DNA of 64,000 nucleotides from Rhizodiscina lignyota (taxonomy: Eukaryota), in contig ML978121.1 in NCBI GenBank assembly GCA_010015805.1, forward strand, positions 3,410,001 to 3,474,000. Direction: 5' to 3'. Made by a program: the position numbers and the translations under genes. Under the pieces are notes generated by a model. It was given only the letters and a program-made list of their open reading frames with translations, did no database searches and was not told where the DNA came from. Each line of letters opens with the position of its first letter. The stretch's first letter is position 1. Shown here one piece after another: positions 14,136 through 57,732 of the stretch.

Positions 14136-17100
14136 ATGTCGCTCTTTTCGACCCATTCCACCAGCGATCTAGAGTCGGCGCGAGAGACCATTGAAGGCAT
14201 TGCTAGAAAGAGGGGAATAATTAGTGACGCTTTCAGAGCACGTGCCGAAACTGAAGCGGCACAAGGTCATCAGGAATTGCTACAGTTCATTCAGGGGGCA
14301 GAAGAGAATCGAACAGATTTTTCAAGGTCACTTCAGATGTCTGTATTCAGCTTTGGTTGCGTTTGCACTGGCTCTCAATACTAAGCATCATGGTGTATCC
14401 TACAGAATATCGACCGATCTATACTCCAGCAAAGCCCGTTTCCTAATGGAAGTCATTCAAAATGCGGATGACACCCAATATCCGCCAGGCACAACTCCAA
14501 CAATTCGAATTAGCGTCGCTAAACAGCGCGTGAAGATTGAGTGCAATGAGGTTGGCTTTACTGAGCAACACATAGAAGCACTCTGCCGCGCTGGGCGGAG
14601 CTCCAAGCCTCTTGGGCAGGGCTATATAGGGGAAAAGGGCATCGGGTTCAAATCGGTTTTCAAGATTGCGAAACGAGCACACATCCGCTCGCCTCCTTTT
14701 TACTTCCAGTTGGATCAAACCCGTGAGCTTGGAATGGTCACTCCTCTCTGGGACGAGGATTACTTCAATTCCCCTGTGGAGTACCAGACTACCATAGTGC
14801 TCGACCAGATCTGCGACACGTCAACTGACTTCTCTGCAACTTTGGAACAAGACTTACGCACCCTTGATCCCGTGGTCATTCTGTTCCTTCGCCGAATCAA
14901 ACGGTTATATCTCACTCGTTATGACTCAGACCATTTCTCTCCTGACAGACTCGCATTTTCGAAGTACTTTCGGGTAGACGACGGCGCTTTCGATAATGTT
15001 GTAACCCTGGTAGACGAGGGTTCCGGTGCACGCTCCCCGTATTACAAATGGGATTTTCCGAACGTTTGGACTGGGAGTGAGCCACGTCGACCCGGTCTGG
15101 TTTCCAACCAAATTGTGCTCTCTTTTCCAGTCGAGCGATCTAGAGATTCCTGGCTCGCTAGGCCTCGGGAGCTGCTGACTTTTGCGTACCTGCCAGTGGG
15201 CAGTTTTGGATTTAAAGTATGTTGCGCCCACATATAGGCAAGTTGTGAGGCTAAAACTTCTCACAGTTCATCATTCAAGCAGATTTCCTCACAACGTCGA
15301 ATCGCCAATCTGTGGATGAGGATAATCGCTGGAACATTAACATTGCGAACGCAATTCCTCGTGCATTCGCCGGCGCTGTCCGCCATTTCAACGAAAGGCA
15401 CTCCAGTCCCACAGGCCTGGGAAAGACGTGGCCGCTTTTCCTCAACTCTGCATATCACTCTCAAAGCCGGTATTGGCGAAATATTCACGAAGGGATCTTG
15501 AACGAGCTTCGAAGCTCACACATTTTGCAAACTTGTTCTGGAAGTTATGCTTTCCCATCTTCGCTGGCATTTATGGATTGGGCCTGCGACAGTAATGGAG
15601 AACCTATGTTCGGCCAAAAGCAGGATTATGTCTCCGCGGACTACCCTCAATCTGTGCGTCCGACTCTGCGTACACTCAATGTCAAAGTTCCGGACTGGCA
15701 ATGGGTGATCGGCCATGCCAGAAATTTGATAGTTGCGGGTTGTACCTGGCAGTGGTTTTCTGATCTCGCCAAGGTGCTTCTAGCTCCCCCTGAGGCACGG
15801 TCTGGCACCAGTTATACAAGGGAACTGTGCAGGATCAATCTTGTCCCGCTAGCGGACAACAGTTGGACTACTGCACCAAATCCGCGAAATCCTGTTTACT
15901 TCCCTCAGAGCTCAGGTGTCTCCATCCCGTCCGGATTGCCCTTGACTCTGGTACATAATGGCGTTTGCGAGTATCCTCATACAATGAGCCTTTTACGCCT
16001 CCTTGGTGTGCGGGATTGTAGTGTCAGCGATGTAGTGGAGCGAATCTTCGATTATCATGACAACTTTTCCATAGCAGACCGCCAAGACATGATTGGACAT
16101 GTCAAATACCTTTTCCACGCCAGAGACCATCTGGGGAATAATAGTATGGACAGGATCCGGTTTGCACCTGAAGATATCGGACGCAACTGGCTGTTTAGAC
16201 GCAGCTGGGATATGTATATTCCAGACTTACCGGACAGCAACCTCCGCGAGCTCTTCTCCAGCTATGAAGGGGTGTTCTTTTTACATGCCGAATATTTCCA
16301 AGGACTCACTAGTTCAGAGAAGGCAGATTTTACTCGCTGGCTAAGTAGTGTCACTTCTCTTGCAACAATCCCCAGACTCAGCTTGACGACAAACGGTTTA
16401 TCGCAGATGCACGGTGATTTCCGCTGGTTGATGGACAACAAAGGCAGCGAGATTATTGGCCTTCTCCGTAAGCATTGGAGGAAATATCAGCCGCAAGCTA
16501 ACCTATCAATTCGTGGAGACCTCGAGCGCCATATTGTCTCTTGCACGAATGGCAGTCGATTGCCATTACGAGAGACATTCTTGCCTCACCCTGCGTTGAT
16601 GGAGAAGAGCCTGGACTACTGCGGCAGAGCTACATGCCCGTTTCTCAGTTTGGCGGGGCCGTGTAACGACTGGATGTTCCTTTCACAGCTCGGAGTGGGC
16701 TCAGAAGAAGACTTGGACTTTTTTCTTTGGGTTCTTAGACAGGATGCTTTTCGAAGCCGGGCTACCGTCCAGTCCGCAAAGAGACTTTACCTTGAGATCC
16801 AGTCAAGGGCGGAATATCAAAGGAATAAAGTGAAGTAAGAAACTCTTCCCAAGGCTTTTCTGGATCAGAAGTCTTCTCTGTACCTGATTGCTGACAAAGT
16901 ACCCCAGTGCTGCATTTCAACGGGATGTAATCGCAACACCGAGTGGCAATTTTGTCAGCGCGAGTAACTGCGTCTATCATGCTCCGCATGCATATTCCTC
17001 TAAGCCCTCCCTCTTCTCAATATATGGCAGTGATCTTACAGATCTATTCCAACGTGTTCTGGACATCCGATCTGCTACCGAACATGAAGTTTTTGAGCTT

Positions 17101-20026
17101 CTGCAACAGTTAAGGTCTGATCCAAGTACGACTATGTTAACGGTTGCGAACGTCTACATGTATCTCCAAAGCTATGGGACACAAAGGTAAGCAAATCGTA
17201 GCTCAAGCTCTCTAAACGTGACCTAACAGCCATTAGCACCGTCCATAATCACTTTTGCTTGTCGCTCTCCATTGCTGTTCCGTCGGACTCAGGAAGTTTG
17301 ACATGGAAGTTGCCCTTTCAATGCGTGTGGGGTGACCACGAATTCTCTCAGAATGGACTTCATCTTCGGTCCAGGATTTCGCTCCAACATATCATGGAGC
17401 GATATCTTTCAGACGCTGTATCCTTCTTCACCGGCATTTTGCGAATTCCCAATGCCGGGATTGACGACCTTTTGGGCGACCTCCGGCTGTTACAGCAAGA
17501 GCACAGTGATGATGCATCTACAATTTTCAGATTGTATGAGAGGATCACAGCACATTGTCGTAGTTCGCGTAACGAGATTAGGTAAGGGTTAGGTCCGGCT
17601 GATTCAGACAATTGTGCTGACACCGAACAGGGCTGCGTTCACGACTTCACCACTGGTTTTCCTCCGCGGTTCCAGCGGAAGTCGTGGGCAATGGCTACAA
17701 CTTAACGAATGCATTTGGAATAGGTCAAACCTTCGCAGCAAGCACGCCCTTAGCCGAACCTTGAGCCAGTATCAAACACTCTTTCGTGAGACGTTGGATG
17801 TCCCAAACGTCACATTGGAGATGTTGGTTGCAGAACTTTGCATCATCACCGCTCTCGGAGACAATGCCGCATCCAACGAGGATCAGTTTCAATATGGTAA
17901 ACGGATTTTGCGCGACATCAATGGCAACGAAGATGTTTTCAACAGCAATGACCGGCTTAGACGGGCTAAGTGTTGGCCATGCCTAACTTCAGCCGGAAGG
18001 CGAACATATCTAGGCATTGGAGAATTCTACGTCAATGACCGTCAAGATGTATTCGAGATCTTTTCCCACTCAAGATCGTTCCTCGATTTTGATTTTGACG
18101 GCTCCCGGAACTTCGTCCCCTTGCTTCGCCATTTGGGCTGCGACTTGTTCTTGTCAGAGAAGGTCACCGTGGGGACGGAAGCTTGTGAGCCACTTCAGCT
18201 TGATGAGGGCCTCGGTCAAGGATATCGAAGAAGAGCTGATGCGCTGTGCAAGTAAGTATCTATCAATAAATAAGGTACCCCCATGTCAGAGCCCCGGCTA
18301 ATTAAAGCTAGATACCTCGAGTACAAAAATGTGAATTCTCCATATGATTTGAGAATCCTGCTGGAGAATTCAACTGTGTGGTTAACCCATAACATTATAA
18401 CTCACTATTCCTTGGGAACTCCAGGGCAATCTGAGTATGTCGAGGCGACAAAAGATGAGGGAGGTTCTAGCGTGCGCGTGAGCGAGACTGCACGCTCTCA
18501 ATGGTCTCTCGAGATCTACCTCTCATCCAACAGAAATAGGCGAAATTGCGCAATGGTGACAGACTTCCCTAGACAACTTGCCATTGCTCTTGGAATTTCG
18601 CTTATTAACATCGATAATGAGCTTCATCATTTCCTTGATGTACCGGTTGAGTCGTTAGAAGAGCTACTCATTAAGAAAGGCGCCGTCGGGGGGCCTTCTT
18701 CCGCATCGAATCAAGCAGAAATCTCAGAAGCACGGGAAGCTGCTCGAGAGACTGAAGGGCTGCAGCAAACCGAAAACGCCTTGTTTACGCCCTCTTCTCT
18801 CGGGCCAGATACTCCTCTGACGGATTCCCGCGCAGAGTCTGAAGCAACTTTGGCTACGCGAGCACCTTCCGGATCCCTCGCACCTCAACCGGCACCATTT
18901 CCTCGCGAGCTACTGTCTGATCAACCTGTTCAACTCGGAGGACAGCTTTCCAGCGGAGAGATTACTTATGCCCAGCCGACACCAGATAATCAGGCGCGTG
19001 GACCCAGTGTGAGAGCAGGTATTTACCATTTTGGAAATAGAAGCCAGAATAGGGATAGACTGGAGCATTTCGCGCAGGCCGCTGATGTGGCAACTAATGC
19101 TCGAGCGTATGTCGCAACACAACCCACGAACGGATCACACGATGGCCGATCGAATGCTCGGCAAGACGCTTTTGATGTTACGGATCTGAGAGCTGCACTA
19201 GAAGATCAGCCATTCCGAGCTCACAATACCACTTCCAACGTGACAGGCGTGAATGGAGCGCGAGACGGATCTCCAACGATCGTGGCTCCACGAGCATCGG
19301 TTGTTACGCAAGAGACTCCAGTGCGGAGGCTGAGGTGGGTTCCAGACCGAAACTCTGACGAAAGAGCTCGAGATTTCGAAGTCGGATTTCTCGGCGAGCA
19401 ATTTGTGAGTTACTCTCAGAACCCCGGCAAGTCCGGCAAACTGACATGTCAACCAGGTATATACATTGCTGCACGATCGGCTTAGCCTACCCAACTTCTC
19501 TGGCGACATCAACTGGACGAGCACTTTGCGCACTCGAGCCGGCTTTAGCGCTTTTGGAAGAGAGATCTCTGATTTCACGTATCGAGATACAGAAGGTGCG
19601 CTTACGCGCTATATGCAACAGATGCGACATCCGTACCCGACGCCAGCTTGGCTCAATACTGCCTGCGACAACGGCAATGCACCGTTGTACAGGCTGGAGG
19701 TGAAAAGCACAACGTCGCAAGATCCTACGACTCAGTTCTATATGAGTGGAAACCAATACGCGTTGGTACGTGCACATACTTGTCTGATGATAAAGAAGAT
19801 ACGTGCTTGGAATAACTGACGAGAATTCCAGGCGAGGCGGCTCCAGGTCACATCAGCTGTGCCTTCTGAGATATACGCGGTCATTCGAGTTTCCGGACTG
19901 GACGCGCTCGAGGAGGGTGCTCAGCACCAGCCGGAGTGGATGGTGTACTTGGATCCGTACAGTCGCAGCGAGGAAGGGATACTGGACTTCTTTGCGCAGA
20001 CGTACACTGTTACGCCACAGCGATGA
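14136..20026 (+). CDS. ~1807-aa sacsin/NO VEIN-like GHKL ATPase with internal repeats and C-terminal DUF3883-like PD-(D/E)XK domain, 9 exons
   Basis: Exons 14136-14338, 14406-15216, 15267-16834, 16908-17186, 17237-17581, 17631-18251, 18312-19404, 19457-19765 and 19832-20026 join in frame (5424 nt) via GT-AG introns. Motifs: LYSSKARFLMEVIQNADD, CNEVGF, IGEKGIGFKSVF, FAYLPV, FIIQADFLTTSNRQ; C-terminal GFLGEQFV, SDFTYRD, LEVKSTT, FYMSGNQY. Confidence 0.85.
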
Positions 20027-40679: not shown

Positions 40680-41113
40680 AGCGAAATTTTGGGATCTCCT
40701 CAATATCTTCCCGATACGAACGAAAGATCCTGTCAAATCCAGTAAAAGTCCCTAGACCGAGTGGACTCCGAAGTCAGATTTGGCTCTCAGCTCAGCCGCC
40801 AATTGACCGGCAGCCTAACCAAAAAGGGGAAACGGCGGATACAGAAGCACGAACCTCAAGCGATGTGCTTAATCACAACCCATCCCACTTTATCGCGTGC
40901 CACCCAGACGCGTTACAGTGGTGTGGTGTGATTGCCAGCGTGTGTTCATTGCTCATTGAAGTTGCGGTGTGTATAAATAGTCAGACTGGTCCACTTACAC
41001 CTTCGATTGTACAATAAAAGCTCTCCATTTCTCCAAAACTGCCTTCAATTGCACCCGCTGTTCCTAGATACCGTCTTCTATCTTTTTGTTCATTGATATA
41101 CTATCCAAAAACG

Positions 41114-41875
41114 ATGCCAAACACAGAGGAACTGCCAATACTCTCCTACGATGAGCTCTACTACGAGCCCCAGCCTCAATCTCGCCTTCTCTCCCTCCCG
41201 ACAGAGATCCGTCTGGAGATATACTATCATCTCCTAATCCTACCATCCGACCTTCCACCCAGCCTCCGAACATTAGCAGGTCGAAACCATCTCTCGTCCT
41301 ACCTCTACAAGCTCTCCTCCTCGTCCTCCGACCATCCAAACCCAGCCGATGCCCTCATCCACCCCCAGATCCTCGCAACCTGCCGCCAATGCTGCGAGGA
41401 AGCGATACCGATCCTCTACAAATGCAACACCTTCACCGCACACCCATCCCTCCTAACCTCCCTGCCCTCGCTGCCACCGCTCCAGAAATCGATAACCAGC
41501 TCGCGCGTCCTGTGCATGATTAGGCGGTGGCACGTACAAGTGCGTCTGGACTGCGACCCGCGCTACTCCCGCGACCAGGTCACGCAGGCGTTCTCGGCCG
41601 CGGAAGAGCTGGAGGTCGAGTGCTGGCAGGCGATGTACGGAGGCGCGGATCCACTAGCTGTGCTGGGCAAGTTCGCGGGAGTCAGGGGAGTGAGACGGGT
41701 GACTGTGAAGGGGAGCATGGGCGCTGATTGGATCAAGAGGATGGAGCAGAGCATGAGGAAGCCGGTTAAGGAGGTCGGAAATGCCAATGTTGAGGAGGGA
41801 GACTGGGGCGTCGTCGAGAGGGAGGTTGTCGGTGGAGGGAGGTGCTACGAGCTCTGGACCAATGGAGGCCGATAG
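41114..41875 (+). CDS. Fungal protein with an N-terminal F-box-like motif
   Basis: Intronless ORF with SRLLSLPTEIRLEIYYHLL, ILATCRQCCEEAIPILYKCNTF, VRLDCDP and GVRGV. Confidence 0.8.
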   Translation: MPNTEELPILSYDELYYEPQPQSRLLSLPTEIRLEIYYHLLILPSDLPPSLRTLAGRNHLSSYLYKLSSSSSDHPNPADALIHPQILATCRQCCEEAIPILYKCNTFTAHPSLLTSLPSLPPLQKSITSSRVLCMIRRWHVQVRLDCDPRYSRDQVTQAFSAAEELEVECWQAMYGGADPLAVLGKFAGVRGVRRVTVKGSMGADWIKRMEQSMRKPVKEVGNANVEEGDWGVVEREVVGGGRCYELWTNGGR

Positions 41876-53313: not shown

Positions 53314-55417
53314 TCACGATGCAAGTGCTCGAGCACCTGGGTTACCGCCTCGTCCGCGGCTTTGGCGGCCCTTTGCTGGGACAGTGCTCCATCCATCATC
53401 TTCCATGGTCTCAGCAGTTGGACTCGCGTTAGCGGCAGCAGCAGAGTGGGGGACTGAACCCTTTCTCCAAGAACCGCTTGGTCCTCGTGGAGGATCGCGA
53501 GTGACCTGCTTCGGCTTCACAGCCTTGTCTTCGACGATGTTGCCATTCGCTGGCGCATCCTCTCCATCGTTCCCCTCTTCTCCAGCATCATTCTCTCCGT
53601 CTTCATCAGTCACACGCCGAAGAATCTCATAGTTTGCGGCAGGGGCCTTCTCTTCTCCCTCTTCCTGGGCATCAGCCCTTCCATTCTCCTGCACCGGACT
53701 GGCCACGCTCTCCTTGGGACTAGAAACCTTTTCAGCTTTCTCCTTCTCTGCTTTGGCCTTGCGCTCCTCGCGAGCCTTGTCATCGGCCTCCTTCTTCTGG
53801 CGCAGCGCAAGCTGTCTCTTCTCTTCAATTTCACGCTCCCTTCCAGCAGTATCGATGGGCTTGGCAGCGCCGAATGGGCTGGCCTTGGAATCGCTTGCAG
53901 ACGCAATGGGGCTTGGCTCGGCCTCAGAGACTGTCCTCTTTTGAAGATTCAGCTTCGGCCTGGAGGTGAGCGGGGCCGCCTGCGCAGGCGAAGATGGTGC
54001 GCTTGGCTCTGGGGTAGGCGAGGTTGACTTCTGCGAAGCAGGATCCGGTCTCATTCTAGCACGCCATTGATTGTCCATGTCGGCGGCAGTCGGAGCCCGC
54101 TCAATAGGTGGTGGACGTTCGCCACGTTCGCCACGTTCACCACGTTCACCTCGTTCGCGAAATTCACCTCTCGGTGGACGAGATCCGTCTTGGCTCCTGT
54201 TCGTCCCTTCACCCCATGCTGGGCTCAGCTTTCTCTCACGAGGAGCCTGCCCTTCCTGCGAGCGGACACGGCCACCCTCACGTCCAGGAGGGGCACCTGC
54301 TTGTGGGGACGCCGGTGGAAGAGGACCCTTTCTCTCCCAATTGCCGAAATCTCGGGTCTTGCCGTCATCATTGAAGGGTGCCTGTCTGCGGCCACCTCTG
54401 TCGCTGCTGGAGTCACCAGCAGCAGGTTCGTAGCCGCGATTGAAGCCACGCTCAGATGGGCGACGCTGCTGGTTGGGGAGATCTGGGAGAGGTCCTTTGC
54501 GAGTCCAGTCGTTCAATTCGCGCGCTTCTGGGCGATCCTTTGCTGTTCCTTTGGTGAGCAAACATCTTTTTGAAATCTAGTGGGGGAAGCGACGCACGTG
54601 GATCTGCCACACTGAGTCTGATATTACGGCCTTGGAATTGGGTTCCATCTTTCTCCAAAGCCTTCTTGAGCCCATCAAGGCTACTGAACTCAACGTATCC
54701 GAAGCCCTTCGGCTTGTGCTCCATCTTGTCCTCGACTATGCGGACATGCGAGACACCGCAGTCCTGGAAGAAATCGTGGACATCGCCTTCGGTAGCATCG
54801 AAAGAGAGGTTTCCAAGATGGGCTGTATATGGAGGCTTCGAAGGGAGAGGCAGTTGCTCACGCACGGCGAATCCGCGATCTGAAAGAAAGTTAGCCTGCC
54901 GAATATCGATACAAGGGCTGCACGCATACTGCTGAAACTTCCCTCACCCATTCCAGGGGCGGTGAATGTTCGACGTTCTCCTCCATAGCCCGTGCGTGAT
55001 TCTAGTGTGATGTCAACTAATTACTCCTTCGAGTTTGTCTCGGCAAGCGTGTCGTGGCGGTTGCACGAGAAGTTCTCGGAATTACTAACCAGCTATAAAA
55101 AGTCAATTCAAAGCGTGTAAGGGGAGTCGCACTATTACTTACTTGTCACCGGCATATCTTCCATTTCATCGGCCCATGATCCCAGAGCTTGATCGTGTTA
55201 GCCATAAGAGCACTGACGCGGGATTCAATTGGAGCGCATACATTGGTCGCCTAGGAAGTCTCCCAGGGACATCTTCTGGTTCTTCTTCGGAGCTATACAG
55301 CAGAGACATGTCAGTAATTGTCCATTTCCCGAGATGAGTTCCGGTCTCAAGGCCTCGAGCCGTCGTTTCTGGAGGCCAGCCTGACGCCGATCGCTCGCGA
55401 GGGAATTACGCACCCAT
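53314..55417 (-). CDS. TIF3: Translation initiation factor eIF4B (RRM), 5-6 introns
   Basis: MAPKKNQKMSLGDFLGDQSLGSWADEMED, RRM PPYTAHLGNLSFD...KGFGYVEF, DWTRKGPLP, RPKLNLQKRT and SPFGAAKPIDT. Confidence 0.92.
54114..54160 (-). repeat. 9-bp coding tandem repeat (RGE)n in eIF4B
   Basis: Plus strand acgttcgcc acgttcgcc acgttcacc acgttcacc tcgttcgcg, encoding RERGERGERGERGER. Confidence 0.85.
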
Positions 55418-56085: not shown

Positions 56086-57732
56086 ATGGCATGGTCTCCA
56101 TCAATCGGTGACATTCTTGCTCTTTACGATCTTGCTCAAAGTATATACGTAGGATGTCGTAATGCACCGGATGAGTTCACGGCCGTACAGATCAATGTAT
56201 GCTCTATAATGTGCTCTGTGAGCGCGATATCCCGCGCTTCGAAAGATAAAAGATCTATACTTAACAGGGACGAAAGCACTCGACGAGACGTCAGGACACA
56301 ATCTGGCATGTGTCACCAGCTGCTTACGCAGGTTAGGGAGGTGCAGAAGAAGTATCCGAACCGGAATATGACTGTGAGCCAAAGGGCAGCGTGGCACTTT
56401 AGTGACAGGGCGAAGCTCTACGACAAAGTTGGACAGCTTGATAAGCTCGTGCAAAACTTCAGCACATTCTTGAACATTGTAAGTATCCAAACTATAGATT
56501 CACGAGCTTGGACCTAACCGATCCAACAGCTTGGGCTTGTCAGTCCGCAAGACATAGAGCCGGAATTTGATAGAACTACGGACGCGAACATCGCCACAGA
56601 TAGTGCTATTTCGAAGTCCGGCAGGAGCGTTTCCAAAGACGATAGGAACATGCTACTTGAATATGCTCGCCACATGAGAGAGTACGAAAGACTCATCGGC
56701 GAACAACCGAATGCAATATCACTAGTTGCTATCCAACAACGTCTAGAATGCTGGACGATTGACACTGTTACCGCGCGAAACAACAGGGACAGCACGATCG
56801 GAATGCCAAAAAAGCAGGAGCGCAGCCAAATACGCTTACAGCAGATGGCAGAAGAGTTTCAAAACAGTACTTTCAGACTTCCTGACGGCGATAGACATGA
56901 ACGAGTCAGGCGTATTCTGGAGCTGCGCAATGTTCGCGAGAACAGTCGCAGCATAAGATGGGTCTATGTAGCTGGTCGAGTCGTTGAGTATGAGTCGATT
57001 GGCGCGGATGACTCCGCCACGCAGACCGTCATGGTAATCATCAGAGCCATGGAGGACGACGCTGAACTTCGTAAAACCAGACCCATCAGGCCCCCGTCAC
57101 GAACTCGTTCAACCGAAAATCTGAGACCACAGTACGACGCCCGCAAGTCCCCGGAGCCAGGTCGGGAGAAAACCCGGGCCATACCACTCCCAGTATCTAG
57201 AGCGCCGCTTCCAGATACTCAAAAATACGAAGCCATAATGACCCAAGCAATTACACGCCCTCAACAGCGGCCTCATGATGGACTACTTAATCCACAGCCA
57301 ACACGAATTGTACGTGTCGTTTCAGACCCAGGACGCAAACCGCATCTGAAGCTACCTCCAGGATCCTCCCGAGGTACCTCACCTACTCCATCAGATATCG
57401 CGAGCGTCACCACAACCAACACAATAATCAAGCGCATACACACCGATGGTCGTTGCAAGTGGGGTGCCAAGTGCATGACACGTCGATGTCCCAACAAACA
57501 CCCGCCCTTATGTGAGCAAGGGGACAAGTGTCGAAGCCTTTCCTGTTTCTATGAACACCCAACCTTATTTTTATGCCCCAATGGAGTAGACTGCAGAAGA
57601 GATCATTGCAATAAGGAGCACGGCAGTCGGCAATGCAAGCAGGACCCGTGTACCGATGATAATTGTGCGATGAGGCATTGCGCTGGACAAAAGGCTGTCT
57701 TAGGATGGTGGGCGATACAGCGCATGGATTGA
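56086..57732 (+). CDS. 531-aa protein with a HeLo/SesA-like N-terminal domain and four C-terminal CCCH zinc fingers
   Basis: Exons 56086-56478 and 56530-57732 (intron GTAAGT...CTAAC...CAG, in frame). N-terminus SIGDILALYDLAQSIYVGCRNAPDEF. Three Cx5Cx4Cx3H fingers and one Cx4Cx4Cx3H finger. Confidence 0.8.

Follow-up and report, generated by a model that had tools for sequence, protein, structure and literature searches.

Regulated necrosis in fungi, plants, and animals has common executioners, the helical bundles of the HeLo, HeLo-like, and MLKL families. To our knowledge, known fungal bundles are switched on by a NOD-like receptor (NLR), either within the same chain or via an amyloid motif. 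Here we describe a gene of the fungus Rhizodiscina lignyota, located in a 64,000-nucleotide stretch of assembly GCA_010015805.1 (contig ML978121.1, positions 3,410,001 to 3,474,000; hereafter the window), in which a bundle of this kind is instead followed by zinc fingers. Available portions of PMC9815663 and PMC12881547 describe the bundle as a membrane-targeting death module, in line with an earlier note on this DNA that had called HeLo and HeLo-like domains cell-death effectors. According to the same portions, the N-terminal bundles of HET-S/HELLP proteins and of MLKL are kept inactive by a C-terminal module and act on membranes after induced oligomerization. These sources also report that HeLo, HeLo-like, and SesA annotations overlap and are grouped with the MLKL four-helix bundle, which models of the three families resemble most closely; PMC9815663 cites PF17111 as Helo_like_N/HeLo-like.

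The gene encodes, in order, a helical domain, an alpha/beta domain, a disordered linker, and four Nab2-derived CCCH fingers with a C-terminal tail, an anatomy with homologies that we propose with high confidence. What is new is the pairing of a HeLo-like/MLKL-type bundle with Nab2-derived fingers as its putative regulatory partner, together with a new accessory domain and without a nucleotide-binding oligomerization domain (NOD). A full-text literature search, whose scope left out subscription journals and supplements, returned no paper pairing HeLo-like/Helo_like_N with Nab2 or CCCH fingers. The start ATG lies at 56086 and exon 2 runs from 56530 to the stop TGA at 57730-57732; splicing yields a translation identical in every letter to the 531-amino-acid NCBI hypothetical protein NA57DRAFT_51716 of R. 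lignyota (Dothideomycetes, Aulographales; 100% identity), here termed P0003. The two-exon model and the coordinates 56086..57732 given in the earlier note were exact, and its phase-0 intron and 131-residue first exon are confirmed from the sequence (393 nt, with a 51-nt intron). The features of the gene are:

56086..57732, + strand: whole gene from start to stop codon, encoding the 531-amino-acid product P0003
56086..56478, + strand: exon 1 (393 nt), residues 1-131, the first four long helices of the HeLo-like/SesA-type domain
56479..56529, + strand: intron of 51 nt, phase 0, GTAAGT...CTAAC...CAG
56530..56700, + strand: residues 132-188, three further helices predicted to extend the N-terminal helical region (AlphaFold2 model, hhalign)
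56743..57078, + strand: residues 203-314, conserved alpha/beta middle domain (AlphaFold2 model)
57079..57453, + strand: residues 315-439, Pro/Arg/Thr-rich linker predicted to be disordered (from model confidence and composition)
57454..57501, + strand: CCCH finger A, residues 440-455, with Lys-Trp after the first Cys; one adenine-stacking position kept
57511..57558, + strand: CCCH finger B, residues 459-474, with Tyr second after the third Cys; one position kept; aligns to Nab2 fingers
57574..57621, + strand: CCCH finger C, residues 480-495; both code positions without an aromatic residue
57634..57678, + strand: CCCH finger D, residues 500-514; both code positions without an aromatic residue; C-x4-C as in the last Nab2 finger
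57679..57732, + strand: C-terminal tail, residues 515-531, then the stop codon; Gly-Gln as after the last Nab2 finger; conserved in the family

Residues 1 to approximately 190 are a helical domain of the SesA/HeLo-like (PF17111)/MLKL four-helix-bundle superfamily. An AlphaFold2 model built from a 19-sequence alignment has a predicted local distance difference test (pLDDT) score >90 across residues 1-310. The part encoded by exon 1 is all-helical (helices 7-25, 29-53, 63-88, and 97-131; pLDDT ~90 or more) and continues past the exon in helices 137-147, 150-161, and 167-188. Among 48,161 chains searched, the top structural match of the N-domain model was the MLKL N-terminal four-helix bundle, and the predicted fold is a four-helix bundle resembling that domain. 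The match pattern, with the MLKL bundle closest, reproduces the one reported in PMC9815663 and PMC12881547. The domain begins at Met1, at the extreme N-terminus of the protein, and this terminus is conserved in the family.

Profile comparison places the domain alongside PF17111, whose current Pfam name is PigL_N (Helo_like_N/HeLo-like). The family alignment (A1) matched a group (A3) with 99.4% probability (hhalign; E 5.2e-21, 146 columns, residues 1-148), and that group includes P0032, which passes PF17111 with 31.1 bits against a cut-off of 27.2; the link is transitive, not independent, because the A3 sequences were recruited by searches begun from P0003. Five A3 members came from the phmmer search (E 2.5e-5 to 3.7e-4) and P0047 from the profile search (E 2.2e-13). 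The distant N-domain matches, all beginning 'MSFG', bear SesA and PigL_N lines in Pfam. Independently, a language-model feature search with residues 1-195 returned Ascomycota clusters as neighbors (scores 0.93-0.95), with PF17111 in 16-28% and SesA (PF17107) in 15-21% of their members. The earlier assignment of this domain to the type found at the N-terminus of fungal NLRs was right at the superfamily level, given the hhalign match, the language-model neighbors, and the MLKL-like model, and the comparison with HeLo, Helo_like_N, and SesA that it had proposed, by profile and by model, did find a HeLo/SesA-like relation.

Individual Pfam models stay below threshold in this family. HeLo reached E 0.17 on exon 1 of P0003 (12.1 bits against a cut-off of 23.2), the match covering the C-terminal third of the HeLo model; the relatives give E values down to 4.5e-4, their matches extending to profile position 199 of 205 at approximately residue 151. 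At E<=0.1, HeLo was seen in 4, SesA in 2, and MLKL_N in 1 of the 19 aligned family members, none of which passes a Pfam cut-off (best SesA 20.0 vs. 26.3 bits in P0014, best HeLo 20.5 vs. 23.2 bits in P0013), and P0003 itself had neither PF17111 nor PF17107 even at E<=0.1. We rejected a HeLo/HET-S type (PF14479) assignment for P0003 on its HeLo score and on its C-terminus, which consists of zinc fingers and not a prion-forming domain. A complex prediction for two copies of residues 1-325 gave a score of 0.00 with the alignment unused and the partner fold uncertain, and has no bearing either way.

Exon 1 is not a self-contained domain in the model, and approximately 180 predicted folded residues still precede the Pro/Arg linker. 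The earlier note had placed that linker straight after exon 1, which was wrong: residues 132-314 are modeled as folded and are conserved, and the disordered Pro/Arg/Thr stretch is confined to residues 315-439. Its suggestion that the gene was formed by exon shuffling at the phase-0 intron is likewise unsupported, because the homology of the N-domain spans the junction (the PF17111-type profile alignment to residue 148, the helices on to 188) and 308 residues separate the intron from the first finger.

The middle domain (residues 203-314) had no clear fold match and belongs to no recognized family. It is modeled as strands 203-213, 219-221, and 225-227, helices 231-242 and 255-267, a long hairpin (273-306), and a helix (308-314), and when folded alone with its own alignment it had a mean pLDDT of 85. 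Q231 and L234 do not vary in the family, and E204, C205, R229, V257, W275, and A279 hardly do; a near-invariant Glu-Cys-Trp opens the first strand and Arg-x-Gln opens the first helix. In alignment A1, every middle-domain protein with a complete N-terminus also has the N-domain. The linker that follows is rich in Pro (16%), Arg (14%), and Thr (11%) over residues 315-439, with pLDDT <50 across residues 327-436. Within it (57079-57453) a proline motif of the type Thr-(Arg/Gln)-Ala-Ile-Pro-x-Pro is repeated and kept in the three close relatives, and a strand-prone stretch, Gly-Leu-Leu-Asn-Pro...Ile-Val-Arg-Val-Val-Ser-Asp-Pro-Gly-Arg-Lys-Pro, is near-identical in P0003, P0004, and P0005. The linker motifs of these three proteins are missing from more distant members; they may serve for docking or as short amyloid-like motifs.

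Sequence comparison identifies the four CCCH fingers as true Nab2-type homologues, beyond a likeness in spacing. The spacing is C-x5-C-x4-C-x3-H in three fingers and C-x4-C-x4-C-x3-H in the last. In a phmmer search against Protein Data Bank (PDB) sequences, residues 459-519 matched Chaetomium thermophilum Nab2 (4lj0; E 2e-5), the alignment extending through the Gly-Gln after the last finger, and residues 439-495 matched fingers 5-7 of Saccharomyces cerevisiae Nab2 (5l2l and 2lhn; E 9e-5). With the family profile these E values fell to 1.6e-17 for 4lj0 and 1.7e-11 for 2lhn. The full-length model, searched against the PDB with Foldseek, matched only Nab2 fingers, and weakly (E 0.038). The four tandem fingers named in the earlier note are correct in sequence at residues 440-455, 459-474, 480-495, and 500-514, and the likeness to Nab2/ZC3H14 that it drew from their spacing is not only borne out but extended to homology. 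No CCCH Pfam model reached its cut-off on P0003 (zf-CCCH_2 13.1 vs. 25.8 bits), and such models did so in P0009, P0013, and P0015. The finger module seems to be a copy captured from the C-terminal array of Nab2, because the C-x4-C of the last finger and the Gly-Gln that follows its histidine both match the extreme C-terminus of Nab2. An assignment of P0003 as a Nab2 orthologue was rejected, the Nab2 N-terminal domain PF11517 being absent at E<=10 and the fingers numbering four instead of five to seven.

The accessible part of PMC3874189 defines the adenine code of such fingers as an aromatic residue second after Cys1 and second after Cys3, with a basic residue after Cys1. P0003 departs from this code, keeping two of its eight adenine-stacking aromatic positions (Trp in finger A and Tyr in finger B) and two of four basic positions. 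The same two positions (2/8) are kept in P0004 and P0005, the two proteins closest to it, and all 16 zinc ligands are retained in each of the three proteins. Elsewhere in the family the stacking positions are kept in 6/6 (P0010 and P0015), 5/8 (P0008), approximately half (P0009, P0011, and P0013), or 2/4 (P0018) of cases, and seven Nab2-type proteins matched over the fingers alone range from 7/14 to 9/10. It is fair to infer RNA binding for the family. The earlier description of poly(A)-binding, Nab2-type fingers stands as to Nab2 homology, and poly(A) binding by P0003 is doubtful because only two of the eight stacking positions remain. The pattern is stable in P0003, P0004, and P0005, and for this reason it looks more like a changed finger specificity in this clade than like decay.

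The family is small and divergent, and all of its named members are Dothideomycetes. A phmmer search run exhaustively over 1.84 billion representatives yielded 40 matches at E<=1e-3. In 15 of these the best stretch begins at the N-terminus; in 17 the finger region alone was matched, and 16 of the 17 pass a Nab2-type Pfam cut-off, P0030 and P0031 passing PF11517 as well. Identity to P0003 is 18-30%, except for the four closest relatives at 66-74%. Complete proteins with N-domain, middle domain, and fingers were found in Lophium mytilinum and Neofusicoccum parvum and in four metagenome or assembly records (P0009, P0013, P0015, and P0018), so the recurrence of this architecture that the earlier note had proposed looking for was found. 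P0014 and P0008, which come from contigs of equal length, look like the two exons of one gene. A word-indexed profile search with A1 returned seven proteins, all but one of them close relatives, and added P0045, P0046, and P0047; a metagenome locus search with P0009 gave one 25-residue finger match (L001). We discarded the 979-residue tetratricopeptide repeat (TPR) protein P0017 as spurious, because its match (residues 71-136) falls within the TPR portion of that protein.

Some proteins have the N-domain but no middle domain: in Exophiala aquamarina P0029 it is joined to ankyrin repeats and in the metagenome protein P0047 to a C-terminal ZZ zinc finger, and it thus combines with varied modules other than a NOD. 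P0003 has no NTPase or repeat family at E<=10 in Pfam, as the earlier note had it for the NTPase, and we rejected P0003 as a fungal NLR or STAND (signal transduction ATPases with numerous domains) protein, since a central NTPase and C-terminal repeats were lacking at that threshold. Pfam scans of the other 39 phmmer matches (17 at E<=0.001, the rest at E<=0.1) found no NACHT or NB-ARC and a single weak nSTAND_NTPase7 line (E 0.032, below cut-off). P0003 and its relatives have no NOD, in keeping with the NLR-independent sensor-effector proposed in the earlier note.

Taken as a whole, P0003 is in our view best explained, if only tentatively, as a modular cytosolic protein of a small, previously undescribed family that would be triggered by RNA, by analogy. 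The corresponding mechanism, an RNA-triggered executioner proposed from architecture, is possible but doubtful. The fingers would be the input end, binding single-stranded RNA that would be A-rich for most family members; the ligand of P0003 itself may not be poly(A), because most of the adenine code is lost. Several copies of the protein on one RNA would bring their N-terminal bundles together, and the clustered bundles would then oligomerize and act on a membrane, with the middle domain restraining or coupling the bundle and the fingers. RNA-templated clustering is plausible because Nab2 fingers 5-7 are reported to dimerize on RNA (PDB 5l2l, Zn fingers 5-7 bound to A11G RNA; PMC5388407, in part).

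Several observations weigh against RNA-triggered execution. No Pfam family passes its cut-off on P0003, the family profile matched neither MLKL nor HET-s chains at the sequence level among PDB entries, and the HET-S HeLo domain is not among the 50 structural matches listed for the N-domain. Hydrophobicity of the first helix is modest (mean Kyte-Doolittle 0.9), and the helix contains two Asp residues. Death activity is known for HeLo and HELL proteins and has never been shown for the subfamily of P0003, and Pfam now names PF17111 for a pigment-cluster protein. Adenine-stacking residues are largely gone from P0003 and its two closest relatives, and some family members are without fingers, among them the annotated 348-residue P0007 of Polychaeton citri, which ends after the middle domain. 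The genes around this one are also of housekeeping type (immediately upstream one for an RRM protein; elsewhere RasGEF, importin-alpha, POT1, DOT1, and MAP65), and no NLR was found among the long open reading frames (ORFs) scanned with Pfam in the 64-kb window at E<=1e-5. A bolder version, which we consider unlikely, is a single-polypeptide, NLR-independent sensor-executioner whose fingers would read viral or aberrant single-stranded RNA in the cytosol, whose MLKL-like bundles would cluster, and whose alpha/beta domain would serve as a latch; it would be a fungal counterpart, within one protein, of the animal ZBP1-RIPK3-MLKL route, with the fingers of the R. lignyota clade shifted in specificity away from poly(A).

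The same housekeeping surroundings, and in particular the adjacent RRM protein gene, would suit a protein of RNA metabolism without any death function, in which the N-terminal and middle domains form a scaffold or oligomerization platform and the fingers tether it to mRNA for lineage-specific handling or localization. The fingers are the sole part with a biochemically defined relative, a Neofusicoccum homologue has been automatically named 'putative nuclear polyadenylated RNA-binding protein', and PF17111 and SesA domains are mostly uncharacterized and also found with ankyrin repeats or a ZZ finger. We nevertheless regard this explanation as possible rather than probable: P0003 lacks PF11517 and most of its adenine-contact aromatics, the nearest structural relative of its N-domain is a death executioner, and the family is patchy and very divergent (18-30% identity, with the four closest at 66-74%), unlike core RNA-processing factors. 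Fingers and a Gly-Gln tail copied from the Nab2 C-terminus could alternatively serve as an integrated decoy or guard, baiting some Nab2-attacking factor of viral, bacterial, or fungal origin, so that binding of this factor, and not of RNA, would free the bundle. Available portions of PMC12258605 discuss the C-terminal zinc fingers of Sordariales NLRs as possible integrated decoys, and retention of the fold for some purpose besides adenine binding would fit here, because all zinc ligands are kept while the RNA-contact aromatics are replaced alike in three proteins. No Nab2-targeting factor turned up in this analysis, though, and the adenine code persists in most of the family (up to 6/6), favoring real RNA binding as the ancestral state; a decoy thus seems quite improbable.

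The degenerate adenine code and narrow distribution would also be expected of a lineage-specific fusion on its way to being lost, which would do little or nothing today. However, the frame of 531 codons is unbroken and has canonical splice signals, relatives at 63-74% identity keep the four fingers, the 16 zinc ligands, and the middle domain, and the structural models are highly confident, so that we give decay little credence. A gene-model artifact, either two separate genes or a mis-joined annotation, might be suspected from metagenome gene calls that split the relatives at the same point (P0006, P0045, P0046, and P0014 on one side, P0004, P0005, and P0008 on the other), but such splits are the usual behavior of prokaryote-style callers at an intron. 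The joining of exons 1 and 2 is supported, if indirectly, by the canonical signals of the phase-0 intron (GTAAGT, the branch-site motif CTAAC, and CAG), by independently annotated homologues from P. citri, L. mytilinum, and Neofusicoccum that are collinear over the splice junction, and by profile homology and a helical model that both span it; with the intron retained the frame terminates at 56517. We therefore consider an artifact very improbable.

Around the gene, the directly upstream neighbor (53314-54943, - strand) encodes an RRM (E 1e-14) and then a long tail rich in Arg, Gly, Glu, and Lys, and its product is presumably eIF4B-like. Two RNA-binding protein genes thus adjoin, their 5' ends at 54943 and 56086 facing each other approximately 1.1 kb apart. 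Downstream of the gene, between 58000 and 60300, there are several ORFs of 130-140 amino acids with no Pfam family at E 1e-5. Elsewhere in the window, a run of long ORFs (338, 527, 220, and 403 amino acids; 14221-19485, + strand) probably makes up a single large gene with multiple exons; a Sacsin domain was matched in the first (E 3.1e-8), and the other three had no Pfam family at 1e-5. An ORF at 41018-41875 (+ strand) matches DUF7730 (E 1e-11).

If the proposed mechanism is true, a bundle wired directly to a nucleic-acid-binding module would represent a different control logic, and in the P0003 family fungal immunity would have a concrete candidate for sensing RNA directly. The family also adds a confidently modeled domain without a recognized fold, and provides a natural series of Nab2-type fingers keeping or losing the adenine code that is useful for probing that code.

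Compared with Nab2/ZC3H14 (S. cerevisiae fingers 5-7 and C. thermophilum fingers 3-5), P0003 shares the finger spacing, the linker lengths, the C-x4-C of the last finger, and the Gly-Gln tail. It differs in having four fingers instead of five to seven, in having no PWI-like N-domain and no RGG region, and in keeping 2/8 adenine-stacking aromatics, compared with 7/14 to 9/10 in the Nab2-type finger-only matches. The Sordariales NLRs with C-terminal zinc fingers described in the available part of PMC12258605 have a NOD, whereas P0003 does not. P0003 resembles HET-S/HET-s proteins in weakly matching the HeLo model (PF14479) over its C-terminal third, but this match is below cut-off, P0003 has no prion-forming domain, and HET-S was absent from the 50 structural matches listed.

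The nearest known systems also include the N-terminal HeLo-like (HELL, PF17111) and SesA (PF17107) domains of fungal STAND/NLR proteins and of HELLP-type effectors. Like these, the P0003 domain is all-helical, stands at the extreme N-terminus, and has the pattern of a hydrophobic helix leading through Ala-Pro-x-Glu-Phe to a second helix, in addition to the 99.4% hhalign match to the group with a PF17111 member and the subthreshold SesA, HeLo, and MLKL_N lines in the family. It differs in that P0003 passes no Pfam model and in that neither a NOD nor an amyloid signaling motif follows; the domain precedes a novel alpha/beta domain and zinc fingers, and a death role would apply by analogy. MLKL, whose bundle is the top structural match of P0003, likewise has an N-terminal four-helix bundle, there with a brace and regulated by a C-terminal pseudokinase.

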